Under the pieces are notes generated by a model. It searched no databases, was not told where the DNA came from, and was given only the letters and a program-made list of their open reading frames with translations. From positions 42,781 through 106,780 of the forward strand of contig JAFTSB010000067.1 in NCBI GenBank assembly GCA_017461945.1: a DNA stretch of 64,000 nucleotides, read 5' to 3'. How positions within the stretch are numbered: position 1 is the stretch's first letter; the number at the start of each line of letters is the position of its first letter. The stretch is from Clostridia bacterium. GTDB taxonomy: Bacteria; Bacillota; Clostridia; Oscillospirales; CAG-272. A program made the translations under genes and the position numbers. This document shows, one piece after another, positions 14,045 through 33,661 of the stretch.

Positions 14045-14821
14045 ATGAAAAAAACAATTATAAAATGCTTTTTGCTTTTGCTGGTCGCCTTAACATTGAT
14101 GCTGCAGATCAGTGCAAATTGCGGCGAGCTGCATTGGTATTGCACGCGACAAAAGGCTCATCGACAGGCAATTGCCGCCTCTGAACTGCGGTTTGTAGAA
14201 GAATATGGCAGCTATTATATTGATCACACGCACAACGAGGCAAGCGATGAAAAGGTCATTTATCTGACCTTTGATGCCGGATATGAAAACGGCAATGTGG
14301 AAAAGATTCTGAACACGCTGCAAGAAACCCAAACGCCGGCGGCTTTTTTTGTGTTAAAACATTTGGTTACTGCCAATACGGCTTTGGTACAACGTATGGT
14401 AAGCGATGGGCATTTGGTTTGTAATCATACTGCTCATCACCCCAATTTAGCCATGGCCAGCGCTGATCAGATTGCCAAGGAGCTGCGAGAGCTGGAAACA
14501 GTTTGCCAAGAGAACGGCATTGTGACCGCTCCTTATTTTCGGCCGCCGGAGGGAAGCTTTTCAAAAGAAATGCTACAGCACGTACAAAAGCTTGGTTATA
14601 AAACAATATTCTGGAGTTTTGCATATGCCGATTGGGATAACGCCAAGCAACCCTCTCAGGATCACGCCATTCGGTGCATTATGGATAATGTACACAACGG
14701 CGCTGTATTGCTGTTGCATCCCACATCGGCCACAAATGCAGCCGTACTGCCAACAGTGATAAAAAGTTTGAAGGAGGAAGGGTATCGCTTTGGTACCTTG
14801 AAGGAGCTATGCGGCGATTGA
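14045..14821 (+). CDS. pdaA: Polysaccharide deacetylase, PdaA-like (spore cortex delta-lactam synthesis)
   Basis: Signal peptide; YLTFDAGYENG, NHTAHH, FRPPEG, WSFAYADW and LLHP match the PdaA subfamily. Confidence 0.8.
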   Translation: MKKTIIKCFLLLLVALTLMLQISANCGELHWYCTRQKAHRQAIAASELRFVEEYGSYYIDHTHNEASDEKVIYLTFDAGYENGNVEKILNTLQETQTPAAFFVLKHLVTANTALVQRMVSDGHLVCNHTAHHPNLAMASADQIAKELRELETVCQENGIVTAPYFRPPEGSFSKEMLQHVQKLGYKTIFWSFAYADWDNAKQPSQDHAIRCIMDNVHNGAVLLLHPTSATNAAVLPTVIKSLKEEGYRFGTLKELCGD

Positions 14822-15501
14822 GGAGATGGGGGTGTATTTTTCTTTGTTTGGGCTTGCTGTGGATAGGAGGGCTTTGCGTTGCTGCACAAGAATCACAGAT
14901 TATTTATCGGTATGTGTCAAACAGCGGCCAGCCGCGCATCGCCTTGACCTTTGACGATGGTCCTCATCCACGTTACACGCCCGTCATCCTGGATCTTTTA
15001 GCGGAATATGACATTCCGGCCACCTTTTTTGTGGTTGGAAGCAATGCCGAGACATATCCCGATTTGGTGCGCAGAATTTATACCGAGGGACATGAGATCG
15101 GCAATCACACCTACCATCACAATCACGTTTCAAAATTGAATCCGGAAGAATTATCCAAAGAAATCGCTCTTTGCAATGCCGCAGTAGAACGCATTACAAA
15201 TCACCCCCCAAAGTTATTTCGCCCACCGGAAGGTGTTTGCACCGGCGCTTTGAAAACCATTTGTGGGGCAACGGGAATGACCATTGTACTTTGGAGTGTT
15301 GACACCAGAGACTGGGCGCACACACCTGTGCGAGAGATCTGCCAAAACGTGAAAGCAAACACCGCCAATGGTTCGATTATTCTGATGCACGATTTTATCG
15401 GCAAAAATAGCCCAACCCCCGAGGCACTGCGGCATTTATTGCCAATGCTACGGGAATTGGGCTTTGAATTTGTTACGGTCACTCAATTGCTGGAGGGGTG
15501 A
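14809..15501 (+). CDS. NodB-family polysaccharide deacetylase
   Basis: ALTFDDGP, GNHTYHH, FRPPEG, WSVDTRDW and ILMHD. Confidence 0.9.
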   Translation: MRRLRRWGCIFLCLGLLWIGGLCVAAQESQIIYRYVSNSGQPRIALTFDDGPHPRYTPVILDLLAEYDIPATFFVVGSNAETYPDLVRRIYTEGHEIGNHTYHHNHVSKLNPEELSKEIALCNAAVERITNHPPKLFRPPEGVCTGALKTICGATGMTIVLWSVDTRDWAHTPVREICQNVKANTANGSIILMHDFIGKNSPTPEALRHLLPMLRELGFEFVTVTQLLEG

Positions 15502-16459
15502 GAGCATCTTCGCTCTCGTTGGTATCTTCTCCCTCATTTTTCTGGTAAGGATCGATCATATATTGCTGGATCACGGGCCAGGCGGCGTATCCGGCAATAA
15601 AGCCTGCCAGGGCGGGGAGATAGAACAGCGGCAAAATCAAGGGGAGCGAAAAGCCAACGCTGAGGCAGGGAACGATCAATGCAAGGTTTGCGCCAATCAC
15701 GATTGCCAGACCAAGAAGAGCCATCGCATTGCGCTTAAGGCCAAGCATGACAAAGATCAAGGCGTTTTTCAAAAGCTTTTTCACCGAAAGATCAAAGGTG
15801 ATCATCATGTGGTAGATGTAAAAGCGCATCACGGTATAGATCACGGCCAGGGCGATCATCATCACGTACACCACACCGCACCAAAAAACATCTGCCAGCG
15901 CGCTGAAATAGTAAAGATCGATAAACAGCACGGCAATGACGGAAAAATCCAAAAGACCAAAGAAAAAGCCCTGCTTCAAATTGCGACGAATGGCATAAAA
16001 ATAGTCGGACATTAAAAAGCAGGAGTCGCCGCGAATCAGGCTGCGGAGATTATAAGTAGCTCCCACATTTTGCCAGCCCCACGTTAAAGCGGTTGCGACG
16101 ACCAAAATCAAAATGGCAATCAAACGCCCGGAGGAAAGCACAGGAACATCCAAGGGGCGCGATATGGCGCCCATCAGCAAATTTGCCGTAGGAGAGCCGC
16201 CGGCAAGGCTGACGCCCAAGAGCGGTGCAAATAGGGCACTTTCGGTCGTAGGCATCGTATCACCAAAAAAGTAAACGATCAAGGCAACGATTAAGGGGAT
16301 GTACAATACCGACATCATCAAATTAAGAGACATCAGCTTTCCAAGCTTGCGCCCAAGCAGCTTGAAAAAGAATTTTAACGTGGGCGTTGTGTCCTCGGCA
16401 ACCGCATCCGGGCGATCGGTTTTGCGAGAAAAAAACGACTTTTTCTTTTCGTTTTCCAT
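15479..16459 (-). CDS. YesL/DUF624-like membrane protein
   Basis: Multi-TM; DYFYAIRRNLKQ and LLKNALIF patterns. Confidence 0.65.
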   Translation of the reverse strand: MENEKKKSFFSRKTDRPDAVAEDTTPTLKFFFKLLGRKLGKLMSLNLMMSVLYIPLIVALIVYFFGDTMPTTESALFAPLLGVSLAGGSPTANLLMGAISRPLDVPVLSSGRLIAILILVVATALTWGWQNVGATYNLRSLIRGDSCFLMSDYFYAIRRNLKQGFFFGLLDFSVIAVLFIDLYYFSALADVFWCGVVYVMMIALAVIYTVMRFYIYHMMITFDLSVKKLLKNALIFVMLGLKRNAMALLGLAIVIGANLALIVPCLSVGFSLPLILPLFYLPALAGFIAGYAAWPVIQQYMIDPYQKNEGEDTNESEDALTPPAIE

Positions 16460-16480
16460 AAAGCTTCCTTTCGGATCAAT

Positions 16481-17017
16481 TCAAAGGGAAGAAAAAATCT
16501 CCCATTGCCGCATGAGTTGCGGCCACATAAAGTACAGAGTGGAGCCAATCGCTAACAGTATAACGGTTTCAATCATATATTTTCCAAACTCGCGAGAAAA
16601 AAGCAAGCCAGTATCTCGCTTTGGGCAAAGAAAGCTGAATAGTTGCGCTCTTGCTGCGGATAATGCAAACAGCAACAGGGAGCTGACCACCAGTAAAAAG
16701 CAAATATTCCATTGTAAAATACCCAACGAGCCCCTTTGTGTTAGGGATGATATATGAAACAAAACCGTCACGTCGTATAAGGCCTTACATACCGATAAAA
16801 CCAATAAATAGGGTTTTGTTAAGGTCAGAACTGCCCCCAAAAGAGCCAAAGCGACAAAGAGCAGGGATGCATTACCAAAGGTCAATACATTAAAAGACAA
16901 CCATTGTCGGGCTGCGATGCCAATTCCAACGGGAACTGCAAGTGCATAGCACAGAAAAAAACGCATAAACAATCGCGAAACGATGTTTTGACGGTTGGTT
17001 GCTGCTTTCTTTTGCAT
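16481..17017 (-). CDS. Hypothetical membrane protein
   Basis: Start MQKKAA after a gggggtga SD; about 5 TM helices. Confidence 0.6.
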   Translation of the reverse strand: MQKKAATNRQNIVSRLFMRFFLCYALAVPVGIGIAARQWLSFNVLTFGNASLLFVALALLGAVLTLTKPYLLVLSVCKALYDVTVLFHISSLTQRGSLGILQWNICFLLVVSSLLLFALSAARAQLFSFLCPKRDTGLLFSREFGKYMIETVILLAIGSTLYFMWPQLMRQWEIFSSL

Positions 17018-17122
17018 TTTATCACCCCCAATTACTATATGAGGGCAACAAATAGGATATATCAAATTTATTGTAACATATATCCCTTAAAAAATCAACA
17101 GCCGCGCAAAAGATTTACAATT

Positions 17123-17158
17123 AAAGGCACCGTGTGCCAAGCCACACGGTGCCTTTTT
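17123..17158. terminator. Intrinsic terminator after clpX
   Basis: aaaggcaccgtgtg/cacacggtgccttt stem. Confidence 0.8.
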
Positions 17159-17163
17159 GTCAT

Positions 17164-18495
17164 TTATGAGCCAGCCTCGGTCTTTTCCTCAAGATCGCGA
17201 AGTAGCACGTATTCGGGCTTCTTTTTGCCCTTGACCGATGCCGGGGTGATCACGACCTCGGCCACGTCCTTGCGGGCGGGGATTTCGTACATCGTTTCCT
17301 GCATCAGGTTTTCCATAATCGCGCGAAGGCCACGTGCGCCGGTGTTGCGCTCCAACGCCATTTCGGCAATGGCCTCCATAGAGCCCTTTGCAAAGGTCAG
17401 TTTGACGCCGTCCATTTCAAATAGCTTTTGATATTGGCGCACCAAAGAGTTCTTCGGCTCGCTGATGATACGCACCAGCGCGCTTTTATCCAACTCGTTC
17501 AGCGATACGATCACGGGGATACGACCCACCAATTCGGGGATCAAACCGTATTTCACAATATCGTGGGGGAGTACGTCTTTATAAATACCAACCTGCTTTT
17601 TCTCGGACTTTTTCAAGATCTCGCTGCCAAAGCCCACCGCGTGGTTGCCCTTGCGACGCTCAATAACTTGCTCCAGTCCTTCAAAAGCGCCACCGCAAAT
17701 GAAAAGAATGTTCTTAGTATTGATATGAATGAACTCCTGATTGGGGTGCTTGCGCCCGCCCTGTGGGGGAACGTTGGCAACGGTACCTTCCAGGATCTTC
17801 AGCAATGCTTGTTGAACGCCCTCTCCGGATACATCGCGGGTAATGGAACGGTTTTCGCTTTTGCGCGCGATCTTGTCGATCTCATCAATATAAATGATGC
17901 CGCGCTCGGCCAAAGCAATATCAAAATCGGCGGCTTGGATCAAGCGAAGCAGAATGTTTTCTACATCCTCGCCCACATAGCCCGCCTCCGTTAGCGTGGT
18001 GGCATCGGCAATAGCAAAGGGAACCTTTAAGGTTTTTGCCAAGGTTTGTGCAAGATAGGTTTTACCCACACCGGTGGGGCCAAGAAGTAGCACATTACTC
18101 TTTTGCAGCTCGATGCCTTCTTCTTGCTCCTCCTCGGTGCGTTTACCGTGCTTTTTCTTGCCGGCACTATGTTGCTCTGCGTAAAGCACGCGCTTATAGT
18201 GGTTGTACACCGCCACAGAAAGGGCTACCTTGGCCTCATCCTGTCCGATCACGTAATCATCCAATGCAGCCTTGATCTGTGTGGGGCGAGGGAGCGTATC
18301 CAACGTAAATCCGCTGCGATCCGCCACCTGCTCCTCGGTTTCGCTGATCAGCTCGGCACAGGCATCCACGCAAAAATCGCAGATGTAAATACCGGTGGGG
18401 GAGGGAATGAGAAAATTAGCTTGATTCTCGTTTCTGCCGCAAAAAGAGCAATAGCGCGTAGAGCGACTGCCCTTATTCGTGGTATTATTAGACAT
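17164..18495 (-). CDS. clpX: ATP-dependent Clp protease ATP-binding subunit ClpX
   Basis: CSFCG zinc finger, [24 protein letters not shown] and [10 protein letters not shown]. Confidence 0.99.
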
Positions 18496-27087: not shown

Positions 27088-27507
27088 TTAGAGGCTGTCA
27101 ACGATGCGATGTGCCCAATCCAGACAAGCTTTCTTTTCCTCATCCTTAACGCTGTTAAGGAAGGGAAGGAAGCTGCTCTTTACATAAAAGACCTCGTCCT
27201 TAACGTTAGTTCCGGCCTCGGCCAAAATACCTTTAACGTACTTGGCACCGGCTTCGTTGCCGTCGATAACCAAAGCCACGTTCTGGGCACGAGCCTTGGT
27301 CAGCTCGCGGCAGAACAAGCGAACCTGGTTTTCCAGATCGCCCTTGGTAGCAAGCAGCAGAACAACCAAACGCTCGTTATTGCAGGAATAAGCAGGAGGA
27401 ATAACGTCGGTAGCGTTGATGTCAAGACCAAACTCCTGATGAATCATAGGGGCGAGAGCGGCAACTTTGCCTTTGCCGGTATGAAGAACGCGCATTTTGA
27501 TAGCCAT
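27088..27507 (-). CDS. Hypothetical protein, possible flavodoxin-like fold
   Basis: 139 aa alpha/beta pattern, ggagg SD, own extended -10 promoter. Confidence 0.65.
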   Translation of the reverse strand: MAIKMRVLHTGKGKVAALAPMIHQEFGLDINATDVIPPAYSCNNERLVVLLLATKGDLENQVRLFCRELTKARAQNVALVIDGNEAGAKYVKGILAEAGTNVKDEVFYVKSSFLPFLNSVKDEEKKACLDWAHRIVDSL

Positions 27508-27676: not shown

Positions 27677-27708
27677 TTTTTTGTTGTTGACTTGTCAACA
27701 ACAAAAAA
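27677..27708. repeat. Perfect 15-bp inverted repeat
   Basis: ttttttgttgttgac-tt-gtcaacaacaaaaaa. Confidence 0.8.
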
Positions 27709-27758
27709 GGGTGCCATTACAATTATTTTAAATAAGTCAAGGTATCAATTGTTTTTCG

Positions 27759-28145
27759 CATTTAAAATTTTTAATAAAAGCCAAAGATGGAATTGTCTAT
27801 TAAAAAAAATAATCAAAGATAATAATAAATATTTTTTATGGAAACAATCCGTGGTCGTTGCAGCAGTTTTTTGTAGAATGAAAAGATTAAATACTTTCAT
27901 TAAAAATTTTAAATAAAAACGATGGATCGTCCATCCGGCAACTTTTTATTGATTGGCGGAAAACGCGTTCGCAAATGGCAATGAAAATTTTTGAACAAAA
28001 CAAGGGAGAGTCCGTTGAAAGAAATTTTAAAAAAGCATATATGATCCGCCACAGCCTTTATAACATTAAAAATTTTCAACGAAAACGATGAACTGTCCAT
28101 AAGATCCATTTTTATTAAACGCATCCAAGCGATCGGCACGCGTTC
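27759..28145. repeat. Degenerate ~37-bp direct repeats in an AT-rich intergenic region
   Basis: Copies at 27898 and 28064 are 31/37 identical; 27979 is 26/37 to 27898; weaker copies at ~27759 and ~27823. Confidence 0.55.
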
Positions 28146-28317
28146 AGAATAAAAGGTATTAAAAGTTCAAAACGCTCCTTGGCTCAGGGGCTATTTATTT
28201 ACCAATGTAGATCAGAAAGAACACTTCGAAACAAACCTCGCTAAAAACACCATTTAACAAAGACATCCGCATTGCAACGCGTTCGATTGATTTATCCCGG
28301 CTTTTTTATCCCCTTTT

Positions 28318-28343
28318 TTATACAAAACTTTGATTTTGTATAA
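28318..28343. other. Palindromic tyrosine-recombinase-type site (candidate dif; attL of the prophage)
   Basis: TTATACAAAA-CTTTGA-TTTTGTATAA: perfect 10-bp arms and 6-bp spacer; AAAA-CTnnnn-TTTT core resembles difSL/difH. Confidence 0.6.
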
Positions 28344-28385
28344 TTTAATACATATTTTAAAAAGGGGTAAGCCCTCCACGTTTAT

Positions 28386-28414
28386 AGTATATCATACTCT
28401 TTTTGTTTTGTCAA
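28386..28414 (-). promoter_or_regulatory. Outward-facing sigmaA promoter at the prophage left end (faces the phage operon in the circle)
   Basis: Minus strand TTGACA-17-TATACT with extended TG; predicted TSS ~28379. Confidence 0.75.
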
Positions 28415-28440
28415 GAAGTAATTTGCGCCAACTGGGTGGG

Positions 28441-28507
28441 GCGAAGGGGCGCTGCACTTGGGTGCCCCCCACTACTGGTGGGGCCCCCAAGTGAGCGCCA
28501 TTTTCGC
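28441..28507. other. GC-rich long hairpin, candidate rolling-circle origin or packaging signal
   Basis: Nested stems gcgaa/ttcgc, ggcgct/agcgcc, cacttggg/cccaagtg and ccccac/gtgggg with a TACTG loop. Confidence 0.5.
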
Positions 28508-28612
28508 AAAGCAAAAAGCCGTAGCGCTTGCGCCACGGCTTCAATTTGCCCTACTCTTAGACTTGCTCCGTTATGGACGGGCTTCGTAAACAAGCCGAAA
28601 GGAGGTGATATT

Positions 28613-28699
28613 ATGCTACTACATCGTATTTGCTATTTTGTCAATGTCCATGGCCAAATGTTCCTTGACATAATAGCATTGCTCGTTGTCGCAAGATAA
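28613..28699 (+). CDS. 28-aa hydrophobic peptide, putative type I toxin
   Basis: MLLHRICYFVNVHGQMFLDIIALLVVAR; AGGAGGTGA SD; 14/28 identical to copy 2 with synonymous changes. Confidence 0.7.
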   Translation: MLLHRICYFVNVHGQMFLDIIALLVVAR

Positions 28700-28723
28700 C
28701 ACGCTCTTTCGGCTTGCCCGTCT

Positions 28724-28752
28724 ATTATACCATAACGGGCAAGTCTTGTCAA
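28724..28752 (-). promoter_or_regulatory. Consensus antisense promoter (putative antitoxin RNA)
   Basis: Minus strand TTGACA-17-TATAAT with extended TG, firing back across the peptide gene. Confidence 0.75.
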
Positions 28753-28937
28753 GAGCCAAGGTAGATACCTCAATCCACCCCTAACCGAATTTGTAGCCGT
28801 GGAAAACGCAAGCGCTTTTTGTTGGCCCGGGGGAGCATCTCGCCGCGCACCTCTCGGTGTCTGCGGCTTCGGTCACCTCGTCTGCGGACTCGGAAAAATG
28901 GCAATTAGGGATGGTGTCCCTGACCCACCCACCCTTG

Positions 28938-29732
28938 TTAGTCGGTGTCGGTTGTGAGCGGTTCCCTTCTCTCTTTGGGCAAGGTCAAAAGGCGGTTGGT
29001 CTGTAGCACCTTCCATCGGTCTGCAACTTCGGTGGGTACGCTTTTATAACGGCCTGCATAGCAGTGGGTATCGTAGGAGCGGAAAAAGGGGTTGATGAAG
29101 CCAACGAGGGTGCGCATATTGTCTTCGGTATTCCCTTCTTCTACTGTCTTGATTTCCTCGGAAATGCTGATGTTACGGCACTTGACCCAGTAGAAGCACA
29201 GAAACTTCTTAAAGTGCATCAAGTTATACACTACGTTAATGCGGCGGCGGATTTCAAGCACGATGTTTTCGGAGCACTGGTCATTGCACACGATATAGCC
29301 ACCGCGCGTGTAGTGTCGAAATAATCGAATGGCTTCGTTAAAGTTCTTCAGCACCAAGGGATTTTTGAAATCAAACTGATTGGCAAATGCACCTATCTCG
29401 TCAATGAAAACCACGGAGCGTGGGACGATACGTTCCCACAAAAGCAAATGCCCTGCTGTGAGAACTTCGGCATACTCCTTGCGGCTGATGCGCAAAGGGA
29501 TAGACGAATATAGCAAGGGCTTTTCCCATCTATCCTTGGGGTGCAAAAGGTTGTGCCATTTCACCTTGCGGCGGTTTTTACGTAGCAACTTCTTTGCCTG
29601 CTGTACCGATTTTAATGACTTCCCCGAGCCAAGGCCGCCAGTATAACATTGAATGGTGTCATAATGGATGATGTAAGGCTTAATGAGCCACACAAGAAAG
29701 ATGATTGTCAGCGCAATGATAAGAAATGCCAT
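28938..29732 (-). CDS. Zot-like / pI morphogenesis ATPase with N-terminal TM helix
   Basis: N-terminal TM, Walker A GGLGSGKS, Walker B VVFIDE, RHY and downstream Q motifs; aggag SD. Confidence 0.88.
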   Translation of the reverse strand: MAFLIIALTIIFLVWLIKPYIIHYDTIQCYTGGLGSGKSLKSVQQAKKLLRKNRRKVKWHNLLHPKDRWEKPLLYSSIPLRISRKEYAEVLTAGHLLLWERIVPRSVVFIDEIGAFANQFDFKNPLVLKNFNEAIRLFRHYTRGGYIVCNDQCSENIVLEIRRRINVVYNLMHFKKFLCFYWVKCRNISISEEIKTVEEGNTEDNMRTLVGFINPFFRSYDTHCYAGRYKSVPTEVADRWKVLQTNRLLTLPKERREPLTTDTD

Positions 29733-29733
29733 A

Positions 29734-30339
29734 TTATCTCCTTCCTCGCCACTCACTACCATAGAATTTATCAAAATCTACAGTATCAGCGGCAACACCG
29801 ATATTTATACCATCCATTCTGACCTCGCCGTCCTCTACCATCCGTTGCCAGTCCAACGGCAACAAACAATACTTGAAAGCGTTAAACCAATCTTTCGAAT
29901 TAAAGACTCGGTCAAGATAACTGGTCATAGTTCCCCACGCATTACGGATAGGCAGAGTCAACCACTCTACGGCGGTTTGGATATTTGACCATAACTTGGG
30001 AAAAACACCGCCAAGATTGTCAAAGAAATGCCGCATATAAGTTATACAGTTATTCATAAAGTCTGTGATGGCCTTGGGCACTTCAGACCATTTTTCAACA
30101 CTAACTTCTTGCCAACTGGGGAAATTAGGCATTAACTCAACATAGCGCGGCACAAACCCTTCCTTGTGATATTCTACATCATCAAGGGTTGGGAAGGTTT
30201 CAAAAAGCACGGCCATACGATTGAGATATTGAGCCGCATTGATGTGATAAGTGCTCACGATCGGCATTGATCCTATCTTTGCAAACAGAGCCGATACCAG
30301 TAATGCGGCACACAAAACGAAAACAAAAAACGTTCTCAT
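29734..30339 (-). CDS. Phage membrane-associated protein (pVI-position)
   Basis: N-terminal hydrophobic segment and amphipathic helices; ATGA-coupled to the upstream ORF; lies directly before pI. Confidence 0.65.
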   Translation of the reverse strand: MRTFFVFVLCAALLVSALFAKIGSMPIVSTYHINAAQYLNRMAVLFETFPTLDDVEYHKEGFVPRYVELMPNFPSWQEVSVEKWSEVPKAITDFMNNCITYMRHFFDNLGGVFPKLWSNIQTAVEWLTLPIRNAWGTMTSYLDRVFNSKDWFNAFKYCLLPLDWQRMVEDGEVRMDGINIGVAADTVDFDKFYGSEWRGRR

Positions 30340-30533
30340 CGTTTCAACCACCCTTTATATTTCATAAAGCGAAGCAAAAAATGGTAAGGCACACACACAA
30401 AGAAATGTACCATCACGGCGGCTACGGCGGTGATGAAGATATAGTAGAAGGTCTTTTCGCCATAGCCTTCGTATAGGCTTAAGTCGCCAAAATGAGGCAT
30501 AATGTACGTATGAAGAATTTCATAAAAGGTCAT
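30336..30533 (-). CDS. Small single-TM phage protein (minor coat candidate)
   Basis: 65 aa, one TM, basic C-terminus, ggaggg SD. Confidence 0.65.
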   Translation of the reverse strand: MTFYEILHTYIMPHFGDLSLYEGYGEKTFYYIFITAVAAVMVHFFVCVPYHFLLRFMKYKGWLKR

Positions 30534-30545
30534 ATACTTCCCTCC

Positions 30546-31496
30546 TTATCCGAAGAAGAATTTGCCACAGATGCCAATCACGAAAGCGGCAACAACGAAC
30601 GTAAACACTTGGACTACTACACCTGCAAGATTGAAACCGAAAACCTCAAAATCAAACATGGTCGATACCGCCCTATAGGGAGCAAATGCAATCTCGCCTA
30701 TAATGTCAAGGAAACTTTCGCTTACATCGTTGCTTTCGCCTTTAGTGACTCCGTTTCTGTACGCAGTATTAACTTGTTCAGCAACATCAGCAAGGCCTGC
30801 GGCCTTTCCTTCGTCAAAGCCTTCATTATAGCCGCTTGGTTCACCATCGTTAAAACCCTCTTCGTACCCGTCATTCCACGCAAAGCCCAAATCTTCCTCA
30901 TCATAATATCCTGCATGTTTTTCAATCCAAAAGATAGGGGGTGTATATGGCATTGAATAGACTCCAACCGTACTGGGTAAAGCGTTCAAATTCATTGAAA
31001 TAGAAGTGTCTAAACCATTACCACCATTGGCATAATAAAGCCATATGGTGCAATGTGCCCCAGCCTTAACCACAGAAGACGAACACTCGTAATTATCATC
31101 ACCGATAAGCCGTATTTCGCTTTCAGTACCATCTAAATTCTCGATATAAACAACAATCTGCCAGTCAAGCATTTCAGAGTCCTCTATTGGGCGATCCGTA
31201 TATTCAACAGTAACACCGAAATATACATCTTGGGTGGTAAACAATTCAAAAGAGCCAAGTTTAATTTCATCAGTTTGGCTTTCGTGATCTATTACCATAT
31301 CAATCACCCCATTTGAGTGAATAACATAATTGCACTCCTGCCTTTCAATAGGAATTTCAGGCATTTCATTCCAAATGATGTGATTTGTATAAATATTTTC
31401 TTCCATTGGGCTAAGATATGTTGCCGATGCCGTAACGGCAAACGCAGAAACCATCAGCACAACCAGAGTCAGCAATACAAACATTCTCTTTTTCAT
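30546..31496 (-). CDS. pIII-like adsorption protein
   Basis: Signal peptide ending ASA, acidic N-terminal domain, GxxxG linker GYEEGFNDG...GYNEGFDEGKAAG, C-terminal TM anchor. Confidence 0.7.
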   Translation of the reverse strand: MKKRMFVLLTLVVLMVSAFAVTASATYLSPMEENIYTNHIIWNEMPEIPIERQECNYVIHSNGVIDMVIDHESQTDEIKLGSFELFTTQDVYFGVTVEYTDRPIEDSEMLDWQIVVYIENLDGTESEIRLIGDDNYECSSSVVKAGAHCTIWLYYANGGNGLDTSISMNLNALPSTVGVYSMPYTPPIFWIEKHAGYYDEEDLGFAWNDGYEEGFNDGEPSGYNEGFDEGKAAGLADVAEQVNTAYRNGVTKGESNDVSESFLDIIGEIAFAPYRAVSTMFDFEVFGFNLAGVVVQVFTFVVAAFVIGICGKFFFG

Positions 31497-31510
31497 TTCT
31501 TTCTCCTTTC

Positions 31511-31547
31511 AAATAAAAACCCCATCCGGCATTGCTGGATGGGGTTT
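31511..31547 (-). terminator. Intrinsic terminator directly after the major coat gene
   Basis: aaaccccatccagc/gccggatggggttt stem plus U run; same position as the terminator after gene VIII in Ff phages. Confidence 0.85.
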
Positions 31548-31551
31548 ATTA

Positions 31552-31776
31552 TCAGCCGCGCAGGTGCTTGATAAAGGCAAAAATGCCCATTACAAGACCA
31601 ATCGCAAGACCAATGCCGCCGACAGTCAGACCAACTTTTGCAATGTCCGAGAGCACAGGCTCGGCTGCTGCAGGGTCAGCATAAATCAAATGCGAAAATG
31701 CCGTTTTAATGCCCTGCGTCATAGGCTCGATGATGCCAGTAAAGCCATCGCCAATCTGTTTAACGATATCGCCCAT
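31552..31776 (-). CDS. Major coat protein candidate (pVIII-like)
   Basis: 74 aa, amphipathic N-terminal half, Gly-rich TM helix, basic C-terminus KHLRG; aaggag SD. Confidence 0.75.
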   Translation of the reverse strand: MGDIVKQIGDGFTGIIEPMTQGIKTAFSHLIYADPAAAEPVLSDIAKVGLTVGGIGLAIGLVMGIFAFIKHLRG

Positions 31777-31778
31777 TA

Positions 31779-31940
31779 TTACTCCTTTCCGACAAGCGCA
31801 AGAAGCAAGCGACGGTCGCTCTTGAACACGGGTTTGATGGGAATATCAAAACCGCGCACGCGCAGAATTAACTGCTCAAAATGTACCTTCTCGCCCGTCT
31901 CCTGATTGTCAAAATCACGGGTTTCAGTATAAAGTTCCAT
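31779..31940 (-). CDS. 53-aa protein, ssDNA-binding (pV-position) candidate, not in the ORF track
   Basis: MELYTETRDFDNQETGEKVHFEQLILRVRGFDIPIKPVFKSDRRLLLALVGKE; aggagg SD; between rep and coat. Confidence 0.65.
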   Translation of the reverse strand: MELYTETRDFDNQETGEKVHFEQLILRVRGFDIPIKPVFKSDRRLLLALVGKE

Positions 31941-31996
31941 ATGCACATACCTCCTTTATGGCTTTATTATAAAGCCATAAATCCGAATATGATATA

Positions 31997-32581
31997 TCAC
32001 TCTAAAATTTCTCCAGTTTCTGTATCGCACGTATTCCACATAGGGCTCTGTGCCAAAGCAACCAATTTCAGCAAGGAATTTGCTTGATAAATGAAGGAAG
32101 GGTGTGTGCGCAAAAATGCCTTGTAGCCAATTTGATTTAAAGCAAGGGATTCAATATCTTCAAGCAGAGTTTCGTTCTTATCTTCTTCGGTCTGCTCTGT
32201 GACCTTTTGAAGCACTTCTTCTAATTCGGCAGGGGCTAAATTAGTATCAAGGTCAACTTGCTTATATTCGGGCTTTTCGGGGTTATCCAAATGGAGCAAA
32301 TATCGCACCGCGCCGTTGGGCTTGGTGGCAAGAGGGGCTTGCACAAATCTATTGTCAAGGCCAAGCCGCTTGGCTATGGTGTACTGAAATTCCCTTTTAT
32401 CCGACATCACAACAAGGTGAAAATGGACTTTTTTGGCCGTTCCATCTTCGTTAATGTCTTGGTCATGTTTTATCATCGCATAACGATAGCCAAAGGCCTT
32501 AAGGCCTGCCCTTACGCTCTCTACGTGTTCCTCATAGAACATGGACGGAAACCACTTTGCACGCGCTCCTCTTTCAGCCAT
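31997..32581 (-). CDS. Rolling-circle replication initiator, HUH superfamily, pMV158 RepB/Rep_2-like
   Basis: HDQD...KKVHFHLVV (HUH motif 2) and YLLH (motif 3 Tyr). Confidence 0.85.
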   Translation of the reverse strand: MAERGARAKWFPSMFYEEHVESVRAGLKAFGYRYAMIKHDQDINEDGTAKKVHFHLVVMSDKREFQYTIAKRLGLDNRFVQAPLATKPNGAVRYLLHLDNPEKPEYKQVDLDTNLAPAELEEVLQKVTEQTEEDKNETLLEDIESLALNQIGYKAFLRTHPSFIYQANSLLKLVALAQSPMWNTCDTETGEILE

Positions 32582-32855
32582 TTCTCGCCACCTCGCTTTC
32601 GTTCACAATTTGTTCATGGACAATGGACAATGGGGGCAGATGGTCGCAGTACATCTGCCCTGCCCACCCTTCCTCTGCAGGGTCAAAATCGTCAACGAAA
32701 ATACCGTAATATGGGTTTTGAGTACATCCAGTTACAATGCGGTGCACTTGTAACCAAGATAGACCAAGGAAACGTGCAACGTCTGCTTGCGAGTAAAACA
32801 ACGCTACTGGTAATTGTGCTTCGGTGCGCTTTTCGTAAATAAGATATGAACGCAT
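32574..32855 (-). CDS. Putative HTH DNA-binding protein, first gene of the phage operon
   Basis: SQADVARFLGLSWLQVHRIV helix-turn-helix-like segment; ggagg SD; overlaps the rep start. Confidence 0.6.
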   Translation of the reverse strand: MRSYLIYEKRTEAQLPVALFYSQADVARFLGLSWLQVHRIVTGCTQNPYYGIFVDDFDPAEEGWAGQMYCDHLPPLSIVHEQIVNESEVARNG

Positions 32856-32886
32856 AAAAAAACCTCCACAGTTTTTACTGTGGAGG
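32856..32886 (-). terminator. Terminator/SD-sequestering hairpin directly before the first phage ATG
   Basis: Minus strand CCTCCACAGT-AAAA-ACTGTGGAGG-TTTTTTT-ATG. Confidence 0.75.
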
Positions 32887-32973
32887 GCTTGCAATCTAAA
32901 AATATAATAAATTATGCCCTATACGGGCACTCGCTCTACCCGCGCGCCTTGCGGCTTTCAAAGCACGGGCGAG

Positions 32974-33079
32974 TACAAAATCAGCATTTTGTGCAAAGAA
33001 GCAAATGTATAGGTAAAAAGCCCTACTGGCTTTTTGCAATCCTTCTTTACACAAAACACACGCTCGATTTTGTATAATT
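32974..33079. other. Two inverted dif-like sites (attR region, folded-attP remnant)
   Basis: TACAAAA-TCAGCA-TTTTGTGCAAAGAAG at 32974-33001 is complementary to CTTCTTTACACAAAA-(11 nt)-TTTTGTA at 33042-33074. Confidence 0.65.
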
Positions 33080-33141
33080 GTATGTATAAATAGATGAGGG
33101 CATGTGCCCCCTTGCTCCCTTGTTATAGCATACCTTTCGAA

Positions 33142-33364
33142 TTGCGCCACGGTTGTCAATTTGCCCTACTCTTAGACTTGCTTCGTCATGGACGAGCTTC
33201 GTAAACAAGCCGAAAAGAGGTGATATCATGCCGTTTAAAACTTTTTGCTACATAATCAATACTCACACCCAAATGATACTTGATATTGTAGCACTAATCG
33301 TTATTGCAAAATAACACGCTCTTTCGGCTTGCCCGTTTATTATACCATAACAGGCATGTCAAGA
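33142..33364 (+). repeat. Type I TA-like module, copy 2
   Basis: Direct repeat of 28528-28754; antisense TGnTATAAT retained, -35 spacer only 12 bp. Confidence 0.8.
33228..33314 (+). CDS. 28-aa hydrophobic peptide, putative type I toxin (not in the ORF track)
   Basis: MPFKTFCYIINTHTQMILDIVALIVIAK; GAGGTGA SD; paralog of 28613-28699. Confidence 0.7.
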   Translation: MPFKTFCYIINTHTQMILDIVALIVIAK

Positions 33365-33391
33365 AATTGTTCCCTTTTGCTTAATGTTATC

Positions 33392-33661
33392 TCAGATGTT
33401 CTTTTTTTCGCCACTATTTTTATACTTTTGGCGCGTAGCCTCGCCGCCACGCAAATGGCGCTCGTTTTTGTTTTTTTGTAAAATATCCTGTACGCGCTCA
33501 AACAAACAACGATTGACCCCTTGCAATTCTACTGTAACGTCTTTATGTACGGTGCTTTTGCTGATGCCAAAATATTGTGCAGCGGCACGAACGGTGCAGC
33601 CGTATTCCACAATATAATTCCCGATCAGCTCGCAGCGCCTTGGTTGACTGAAGTATGCCAT
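33392..33661 (-). CDS. spoIIID: Sporulation transcriptional regulator SpoIIID
   Basis: TVRAAAQYFGISKSTVHKDVT and ERHLRGGEATRQKY. Confidence 0.93.
   Translation of the reverse strand: MAYFSQPRRCELIGNYIVEYGCTVRAAAQYFGISKSTVHKDVTVELQGVNRCLFERVQDILQKNKNERHLRGGEATRQKYKNSGEKKNI

Follow-up and report, generated by a model that had tools for sequence, protein, structure and literature searches.

Does the 26-bp palindrome at positions 28318-28343 of the DNA stretch analysed here serve to resolve dimers of its host's chromosome, and if so, by which recombinase? The stretch, hereafter the window, comprises 64 kb (C43:42781-106780) of the draft genome of a Clostridia bacterium (G000, GenBank assembly GCA_017461945.1; order Oscillospirales, family CAG-272), referred to below as the host genome. 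G, C, f and X numbers denote genomes, contigs, families and metagenome runs, respectively, and features without an indicated strand were not assigned to one. The original prediction, made from the window alone, proposed a chromosome dimer resolution site (dif) of a single-Xer system, revealed by a phage that targets it. Our analysis indicates that the palindrome is probably the dif site of this clostridial lineage, a role that is supported by its position relative to the GC-skew switch, its single copy, the associated recombinase, and the anatomy of the adjoining prophage.

The full 26-mer, TTATACAAAACTTTGATTTTGTATAA, consists of the arms TTATACAAAA and TTTTGTATAA around the 6-bp central region CTTTGA. 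The 10-bp arms are perfect, as had been noted, and the 10-6-10 arrangement corresponds to the two arms and short central region of a dif-type core site. It also forms the left junction (attL) of a prophage, a role that leaves it still perfect. At up to three mismatches the 26-mer was matched once in the window, against an expectation of zero derived from 100 shuffles, and the host genome (2.2-Mb draft, 68 contigs) contains a single full site. Palindromy by itself is unremarkable in the window, where nine perfect 10-6-10 inverted repeats were found versus 0.03 per shuffle. The arms of the eight other palindromes contain 3 to 8 G+C in 10 positions; seven of them run into T-rich sequence and are terminator-like, and the eighth (27680-27705) runs into an A-run. 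The palindrome at 28318-28343 is the sole one composed nearly entirely of A+T, with one G+C per arm.

A 1.5-kb query revealed, besides the neighbouring gene, a match of about 45 bp around the palindrome in about twenty relatives, and 20 loci from 18 genomes were retrieved. The site was present in 19 of them, with perfect arms in 17 and one outer mismatch in two. The central six bases occurred in ten different forms among these 19 loci, and the spacer-initial CT, part of the AAAA-CTnnnn-TTTT core that the original prediction cited for difSL and difH, proved not to be conserved. In 11 loci from the same genus the site is located between the gene of a 139-aa protein or of a phosphoglycerate mutase on one side and spoIIID on the other, 67-202 bp from spoIIID and without any insert. 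The site is therefore chromosomal, and in the host genome the very next base is the first of an insertion. Foreign DNA also follows the site in G007, while G017 and G020 each contain one empty site and one site followed by foreign DNA, on separate contig ends. The site was thus found in prophage-free relatives, where its absence would have spoken against the original prediction.

Single-copy conservation across the lineage, also anticipated, was observed on a larger scale. With up to one mismatch the pattern occurred in 70 of 301 genomes sampled from the order, once in 67 and twice in three, and the reversed control pattern in none of the 301; among these carriers the arms are fixed and the 6-bp spacer is free. 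The exact pattern was found in 52 of 401 genomes sampled from the class, 45 of them outside the order, again as a single copy in all but one (51/52) and with no match of the reversed control. One copy per chromosome, as expected of a dif site, is therefore the rule in the host genome (1), the order (67/70), and the class (51/52). The three double cases were G221, G026, and G174. In G221 the palindrome forms the ends of two contigs (C1 and C36), which overlap there in reverse-complement orientation; the assembly thus broke at the palindrome, and "two copies" in drafts can be an artefact. The 6.7-kb contig G026:C42, which has the gene order of the host genus, is probably foreign to that bin. In four gut metagenomes (runs X2, X4, X5, and X7) contigs match only positions 28311-28345 of the window and then continue into differing flanks, a pattern suggesting that this 26-mer is shared by several organisms of one sample.

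The location of the site relative to the replication terminus is clearest in G033, whose chromosome is available as a single contig of 2,229,578 bp. Every stretch sampled up to 1.146 Mb has positive skew, and beyond that point the skew is negative; the site, at 1,145,999, lies 2 kb from the cumulative GC-skew maximum at 1,144,000. For ten further genomes from five families, 40 kb on each side of the site were analysed. The skew changed sign at the site in nine of the ten (20-kb resolution), and the cumulative maximum was within 1 kb of it in seven, the remaining three being off by -8 kb (G063), +6 kb (G103), and +17 kb (G021). Overall, the site is located within 2 kb of the plus-to-minus skew switch in eight of these 11 relatives and within 17 kb in all of them. 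The original prediction had placed the skew maximum near the site; this is borne out by the complete relative (2 kb) and by seven of the ten others, but not by the host contig, where the distance is 11 kb. A terminus-type switch, hinted at by the first counts, does exist on C43, with positive skew over 60 kb and negative skew over 68 kb. Genes are on the plus strand up to 14818 and on the minus strand from 15482, and this switch and the skew maximum fall within about 14800-17200. Skew is weak in the host genus, in which fork convergence and dif seem offset from each other.

The host genome encodes six tyrosine recombinases, one of which is Xer-like (G000:C62:82648-83670, recorded gene call, 340 aa). 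This protein scored 215 bits against the XerC family model, 203 against XerD, 198 against XerA, and 162 against XerS, all under the curated cut-offs (335 bits for XerC). It passed neither the XerS model NF003462 (162 vs 267 bits) nor the archaeal XerA model NF040815 (198 vs 220 bits), and no XerH model appeared among its library matches. Comparison with solved structures gave 104 bits for XerA and XerD chains and 63 bits for XerH (5jjv). The prediction of an XerS- or XerH-like gene was thus correct as to the presence of one Xer-like gene, but the protein scores nearer to XerC, XerD, and XerA than to XerS or XerH, and it is called XerC-like below. G033 has only two tyrosine recombinases, whose genes both lie at a distance of 8-10 kb from the site. 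The first, of 330 aa, is orthologous to the XerC-like protein of the host, 50% identical to it and recorded as "Tyrosine recombinase XerC"; the other is a true XerD (329.9 bits), 28% identical to the XerC-like protein of the same genome. The XerC-like gene was found in 267 of the 301 genomes of the order, nearly always as one match per genome.

In many genomes this gene is adjacent to the palindrome. In 11 genomes from several families (G169, G181, G322, G201, G035, G257, G113, G075, G249, G197, and G164), 24-82 bp separate the site from the matched part of the gene, and in four others this distance does not exceed 600 bp. In G169, TTAAGGGGAGGAGCTAGGCC comes after the site and precedes the ATG of xer, which begins 20 bp downstream of the palindrome. 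In the host family and f30 the XerC-like gene is distant from the site or located on another contig, as in the host genome itself (gene on C62, site on C43). The proximity would also suit an operator, bound in the course of xer autoregulation or by another terminus protein, which would be no recombination site and which the phage would use as a mere landmark: in the 11 genomes the site lies upstream of xer and overlaps the expected place of the promoter, and fixed arms with a free spacer are compatible with a dimeric DNA-binding protein. We consider this improbable, since the site is still at the skew switch where xer is on another contig or more than 100 kb away (the host family; G265, G291, and G103), and since a recombinase-less phage has been joined to it base-exactly and carries a mimic of it.

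Conservation extends beyond the arms. Outside the left arm, at 28308-28317, lies the flank ATCCCCTTTT, which reads AGGGGAT on the other strand. Relatives from different families share a flank of the type TTnAGGGGA on one side of the site, and G033 and G221 on both. In G169 this flank doubles as the ribosome-binding site of xer. G197, with its start codon 80 bp more distant, and the host family, with the gene located elsewhere, have retained it too. Similar sequence borders the att mimics described below on the phage side, and the conserved flank may extend the half-site.

Variation of the arms provided further evidence on the protein that binds them. The sequence upstream of the XerC-like gene was inspected in 20 genomes. 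Families without the exact site contributed 19 of these; the remaining one, G136, belongs to f19, in which two of 17 sampled genomes have the exact site. Eight of the 20 regions contained a perfect 10-6-10 palindrome in which the outer arm letters were altered alike on both arms, and two more contained a variant palindrome with one mismatch. The eight perfect variants retain the inner arms ACAAAA / TTTTGT (or CTAAA / TTTAG), and the forms TTAAAC, TTGAAC, TTCAAC, CTGCAC, CTTCAC, and TTGCGC were observed. Such matching change in both arms is expected if one protein binds both arms. Of five variant palindromes tested against the skew, four were within 2 kb of the switch. Compensatory arm changes between families, together with the perfect inverted repeat just past the 3' end of spoIIID in the host genus, could also be expected of an RNA hairpin acting as a spoIIID terminator or a regulatory stem. 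This possibility can be nearly dismissed, since the stem is almost all A-T and on the spoIIID strand runs into AAAAAGGGG with no T-run, unlike seven of the eight other palindromes of the window. Moreover, gene context varies between families while the position at the skew switch does not, and the eight variants are perfect at the DNA level, without G-T pairs such as RNA stems tolerate (the two further ones have one mismatch).

XerD matches at E<=1e-75, that is, over or near the curated cut-off, were found in 158 of the 301 genomes of the order. At this threshold none was found in three site-bearing families, namely, the host family (f1, 0/17), f30 (0/17), and f4 (0/4). Among 40 genomes of the host genus no XerD orthologue was detected; in 37 the best matches (29-33% identical) were the XerC-like protein itself, and three had no match. 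On the other hand, XerD is present in the site-bearing families f8 (16/18), f10 (9/10), and f14 (13/18). The "single-Xer" description is therefore true of the host family, which has one Xer-like recombinase in the host genome and no XerD found in the family, but not of the site as such. Several families have xerD and the XerC-like gene arranged convergently, with the palindrome a short way upstream of the latter (for example, G096:C1:203872-205776, G041:C25:217897-219888, and G169:C1:528992-531535), so that the three constitute a three-part terminus module.

These data raise the possibility of a classical two-recombinase dif, at which the XerC-like protein and XerD act jointly wherever XerD exists, with the host family being a secondary single-enzyme derivative. 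We regard this as possible but clearly the less probable explanation. It fits the occurrence of XerD in 158 of 301 genomes of the order, including those of site-bearing f8, f10, and f14, the location of xerD at 75 bp to 10 kb from the site in G066, G149, G197, G169, G181, G113, G033, and G063, its frequently convergent orientation relative to the XerC-like gene, and the agreement of each arm with the canonical XerD half in 8 of 11 letters, according to the table published in PMC3025954. It is opposed by the identity of the two arms and the equally symmetric flanks of G033 and G221, which leave no sequence by which two proteins could be distinguished, and by the unchanged arms in the families f1, f30, and f4, in which XerD was not found. 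A canonical XerCD dif elsewhere in the genome, which would have contradicted the original prediction, was not found in five genomes searched with a degenerate pattern, as matches showed no excess over the reversed control. The host genome gave six matches versus 17 for the control, and these candidates were rejected; the best of them (C64:23834) is just upstream of a gene start, was read as a promoter region, and has no skew switch. The degenerate XerCD pattern misses the site at 28318-28343. Canonical sites have two different arms of the ..ATAA-N6-TTATGT.. type, whereas the arms of this site are identical. The canonical system requires both XerC and XerD, a pair that was not found in the host family.

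The insertion next to the site is an inovirus-like prophage of about 4.7 kb (28344-33046, minus strand), which begins at the base after the site, in agreement with the prediction that a phage targets it. All its genes are on the minus strand, and its G+C content is 41-46% versus about 49% around it. None of the eleven open reading frames (ORFs) between 28403 and 33229 matched an integrase, resolvase, or transposase family over the cut-off, and no coat proteins were identified among its ORFs, several of which are small. A Zot-like morphogenesis ATPase of the inovirus pI type (28938-29774, minus strand) is 53.8% identical over 77% of its length to the annotated Zot of a 5276-bp Inoviridae genome from a faecal virome. 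It also matched PHROG 197 (E 2.5e-4) and, below the cut-off, Pfam Zot (E 0.008). A rolling-circle replication initiator is encoded at 31997-32581 (minus strand; PF01719 Rep_OBD, 46.4 bits, cut-off 24.6). With a Zot/pI ATPase, a rolling-circle Rep, and an insert size of about 4.7 kb, the element was judged to be of the Inoviridae type, for which genomes of about 5-8 kb are expected. Contigs from the runs of two further studies cover its genes. The window gave no match in Rfam or tRNA scans; hence the phage did not target a tRNA gene.

The right junction (attR, 33047-33077) is a mimic of dif, TTACACAAAA-CACACGCTCGA-TTTTGTATAA, with an 11-bp spacer and a single mismatch in the arms. On its left, GCAATCCTTCT can be aligned with the flank TTATCCCCTTTT of the chromosome, and on its right, TTGTATGTATAAATAG is similar to the sequence that borders the site on the chromosomal right side in G006 and G021. 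G020 contains an identically built junction in the opposite orientation, where TCATACAAAA and CAACGTCCAA (10-bp spacer) precede a perfect TTTTGTATAA arm that is followed by the chromosomal flank. In the simplest reading of these junctions, the phage would have carried a long-spacer attP mimic and crossed over at the boundary between spacer and right arm, whereby a perfect dif would be restored on one side. The lack of a recombinase gene of its own, the location at dif with dif-like sites on both sides, and the empty sites of relatives are features of integrative mobile elements exploiting Xer (IMEX).

Searches for the phage outside the window were less productive. The closest phage record, PQ006122.1, has no such attP site, a scan of viral contigs for the long-spacer form gave essentially chance matches, with the full left arm in three of 80 loci, and no Zot-like relatives were found in the viral contigs searched. 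In the host genus, Zot-like homologues were present in three of 40 genomes. Contigs of runs X2, X4, and X7 join positions 28343-28345 to 33528-33543, the short side fitting 26-34 letters and the letters in between being unread; these joins were considered as excision in the host strain but are read instead as empty sites of other organisms. The flanks and 33086-33507 have little or no cover in X5 and X7, which carries no evidential weight.

If the palindrome merely served mobile elements with integrases of their own as an attachment site and played no part in chromosome segregation, foreign DNA after the site in G007, G017, G020, and the host genome would be readily explained, as would a second inovirus-like element of the host genome, which has a tyrosine recombinase 5 kb from its Zot-like gene. 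Such a limited function is very improbable, because most carriers of the site are empty, the site is conserved class-wide at the terminus and beside a housekeeping xer gene, and the element inserted here has no integrase. The second element (G000:C31:61-70 kb) encodes a Zot-like protein 28% identical to that of the window and a 333-aa rolling-circle Rep with an HPHLHLII motif, adjoined by the 285-aa tyrosine recombinase. From its gene content, it appears to use a different integration route.

Several observations nevertheless weigh against the identification of the palindrome as dif. On the host contig the cumulative skew peaks at about 16-17 kb of the window, 11 kb to the left of the site, and genes change strand at about 15 kb, so that both features are offset from the site by 11-13 kb; the only other genus member examined has its maximum 17 kb away, in the opposite direction. 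The exact site is absent from 231 of the 301 genomes of the order, and variants were sought in only 20 of the genomes without it, being clear in ten; the variant of G133 has no clear skew switch. Where the site abuts the xer gene, it could also be the operator of that gene. Families with XerD carry the identical perfect palindrome, often with xerD 75 bp to 10 kb away, and XerD may therefore have a role at the site; the site is thus older than the loss of XerD. The host genome is an 85% complete draft in 68 contigs, so that on this genome alone an xerD gene may have been missed. Finally, the right boundary of the prophage is tentative, as the 314 bp between the mimic and spoIIID have no counterpart in relatives.

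Taking the palindrome as dif, we propose the following mechanism. Sequence, copy number, position, gene linkage, arm co-variation, junction anatomy, and the lack of XerD among the matches of our searches were observed; binding, the positions of cleavage, FtsK dependence, and the order of insertion events are inferred. The identical 10-bp arms would each be bound by one copy of the divergent XerC-like protein of 340 aa, whose contacts may extend to the AGGGGA flank. At the closing septum the sites of the two sister copies would come together, and strand exchange at the edges of the 6-bp central region would convert the dimer into two monomers. The spacer need match only that of the sister copy and would therefore drift freely between species, while the arms would co-evolve with the protein. 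With XerD lost in the host family, the XerC-like enzyme would act alone. The host genome has two matches to FtsK gamma, and two proteins bearing this domain are thus available for coupling to division. The phage, having no recombinase, may enter by Xer-catalysed exchange at the spacer/right-arm boundary, using the mimic with one mismatch and an 11-bp spacer. Such entry would leave an intact dif for the host on the left and a crippled long-spacer hybrid on the right, for which reason the prophage should be stable. Whether the scheme extends to the class Clostridia as a whole appears about evenly balanced. In that case, a perfectly symmetric dif would be served by a homotetramer of one divergent XerC-like protein, gene and site would have begun at the terminus as one module, arms and protein would have co-evolved by family, XerD would be dispensable and repeatedly lost, and inoviruses would enter via a long-spacer mimic that hinders exit.

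Among known Xer systems, the closest analogue is dif/XerL of Legionellales (PMC9765430), which was discovered via LME-1, an integrase-less element with a dif mimic, and in which the function of XerL was established by genetics. Both sites have long uninterrupted inverted-repeat arms (10 and 12 bp there, 10 bp here), are A+T-rich, and occur as a single copy near the skew maximum. In both, integration leaves the upstream copy intact and the downstream copy altered, and a large distance separates dif from xer in L. pneumophila, as it does in the host family (PMC9765430). The two systems belong to different phyla, the gene abuts the site in many of the families studied here, and the comparison covers features of the site and the element. 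Moreover, the altered copy described here has a 5-bp longer spacer, which goes beyond substitutions alone (PMC9765430).

The canonical 28-bp dif of XerC and XerD, listed for Desulfotomaculum, Carboxydothermus, and others (Kono et al. 2011, PMC3025954), likewise has a 6-bp central region and occurs as a single copy at the terminus. Read from the centre outwards, the arm TTTTGTATAAT agrees in 8 of 11 letters with the canonical XerD arm TTATGTAAACT in the table of that work, and the best family scores of the host recombinase were those for XerC (215 bits) and XerD (203 bits). Unlike canonical dif, which has two different arms for two proteins (PMC3025954), the site has identical arms; in addition, the recombinase is far under the XerC cut-off (215 vs 335), and XerD was not found in the host family.

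With the XerS/difSL system of streptococci and lactococci the site shares inner arm ends AAAA/TTTT and, in many families but not in the host genome, the xer-site module (PMC5357621). The central region of difSL is reported as 11 bp, a length comparable with the 10-11 bp of the phage-side mimics, but the chromosomal arms described here are separated by 6 bp and perfectly symmetric, whereas those of difSL are unequal (PMC5357621). The recombinase also differs from XerS, with 162 bits on the XerS model and a cut-off of 267. XerH/difH of Helicobacter and Campylobacter is similarly a single-recombinase module with the gene near the site, and its left arm AGTTATGAAAA shares a TTAT...AAAA pattern with TTATACAAAA (PMC5357621). 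However, XerH gave only 63 bits versus 104 for the XerA and XerD chains, and the difH repeats are imperfect (PMC5357621). Since the recombinase is nearer to XerC, XerD, and XerA and the arms resemble the canonical XerD half, the site reads as a symmetrised variant of the XerC/D lineage, outside the XerS and XerH systems.

The prophage resembles the Vibrio IMEX phages CTX-phi, VGJ-phi, and TLC-phi, which are filamentous, lack an integrase, and integrate at dif via a dif-like attP (PMC5357621). In these phages, differences in the central region limit catalysis to one strand exchange (PMC5357621). The element described here differs from them in its Gram-positive host with an apparently single Xer and in its attP mimic, whose spacer length differs by 5 bp; no folded single-strand attP of the CTX type is evident.

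The dif site of core Clostridia has so far been a gap, as far as the 2011 survey shows: for Clostridium species its table either lacks a prediction or places it on the wrong chromosome side, at an angle of 137-175 degrees to the skew shift (PMC3025954). No description of the motif as a dif site was found in full-text literature, subscription journals being outside this coverage. A 26-bp single-copy marker of the terminus would help to orient and close draft genomes of gut Clostridia, and the site is a candidate for a safe, conserved landing site in the engineering of these organisms. Since genomes with XerD and genomes without it share the site, they form a natural series in which to study the evolution from two recombinases to one, and matched sets of arms and recombinases could be used for reading the recognition code. 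The proposed mechanism would also identify the integration route of small filamentous phages in abundant gut anaerobes.

The right chromosomal neighbour of the site in the genus, spoIIID, is at 33392-33661 (minus strand; PF12116, 106.9 bits, and synteny), and homology with relatives resumes only at 33414-33422, inside this gene. Between the mimic and spoIIID, a second copy of the phage non-coding region (33078-33391, plus strand) is homologous to 28344-28745 and has no phage genes. It is probably a remnant of an earlier, related insertion. The alternative of a single phage that holds both non-coding blocks, with a third site at spoIIID, was rejected because no site was found at 33360-33391; a tandem or remnant reading is therefore tentatively preferred. 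Block 1 (28528-28745, plus strand) has a 190-nt rod-like fold with a 28-codon ORF (-80.9 kcal/mol, z -9.5). Block 2 (33142-33360) is 82% identical to it over 219 bp and folds with -53.9 kcal/mol (z -5.4). In both rods (28560-28750 and 33174-33364) the 5' and 3' ends pair, burying the ribosome-binding site of the 28-codon ORF (MLLHRICYFVNVHGQMFLDIIALLVVAR / MPFKTFCYIINTHTQMILDIVALIVIAK). The blocks have no counterpart in the loci of relatives, and the rods could represent a type I toxin-like transcript or a hairpin of phage single-strand DNA. A long G+C-rich hairpin in the phage non-coding region (28425-28530; DNA fold -32.4 kcal/mol, z -4.0, none of 200 shuffles as good) may be a packaging signal or an origin of the complementary strand. 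In one contig of run X7 the end of block 1 (28786) continues directly at 33067, within the mimic's right arm; the shorter side of this joint comprises 23 letters, and a related element arranged differently may be its source.

To the left of the site, the phosphoglycerate mutase gene and the gene of the 139-aa protein (27088-27507, minus strand) are followed by an A+T-rich spacer of 800 bp. The 139-aa protein had no match in the family-library searches of window ORFs; its homologues (55-95% identical) are encoded to the left of the site in the 11 loci of the genus. The spacer between this gene and the site contains, at 27758-28116, four copies of a unit of about 53 nt at a spacing of 75-85 bp, without an ORF or an Rfam match. 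Three copies with 84-bp spacing are present in the same place in G002, and iterons or protein-binding sites near the terminus are one possibility for these repeats.

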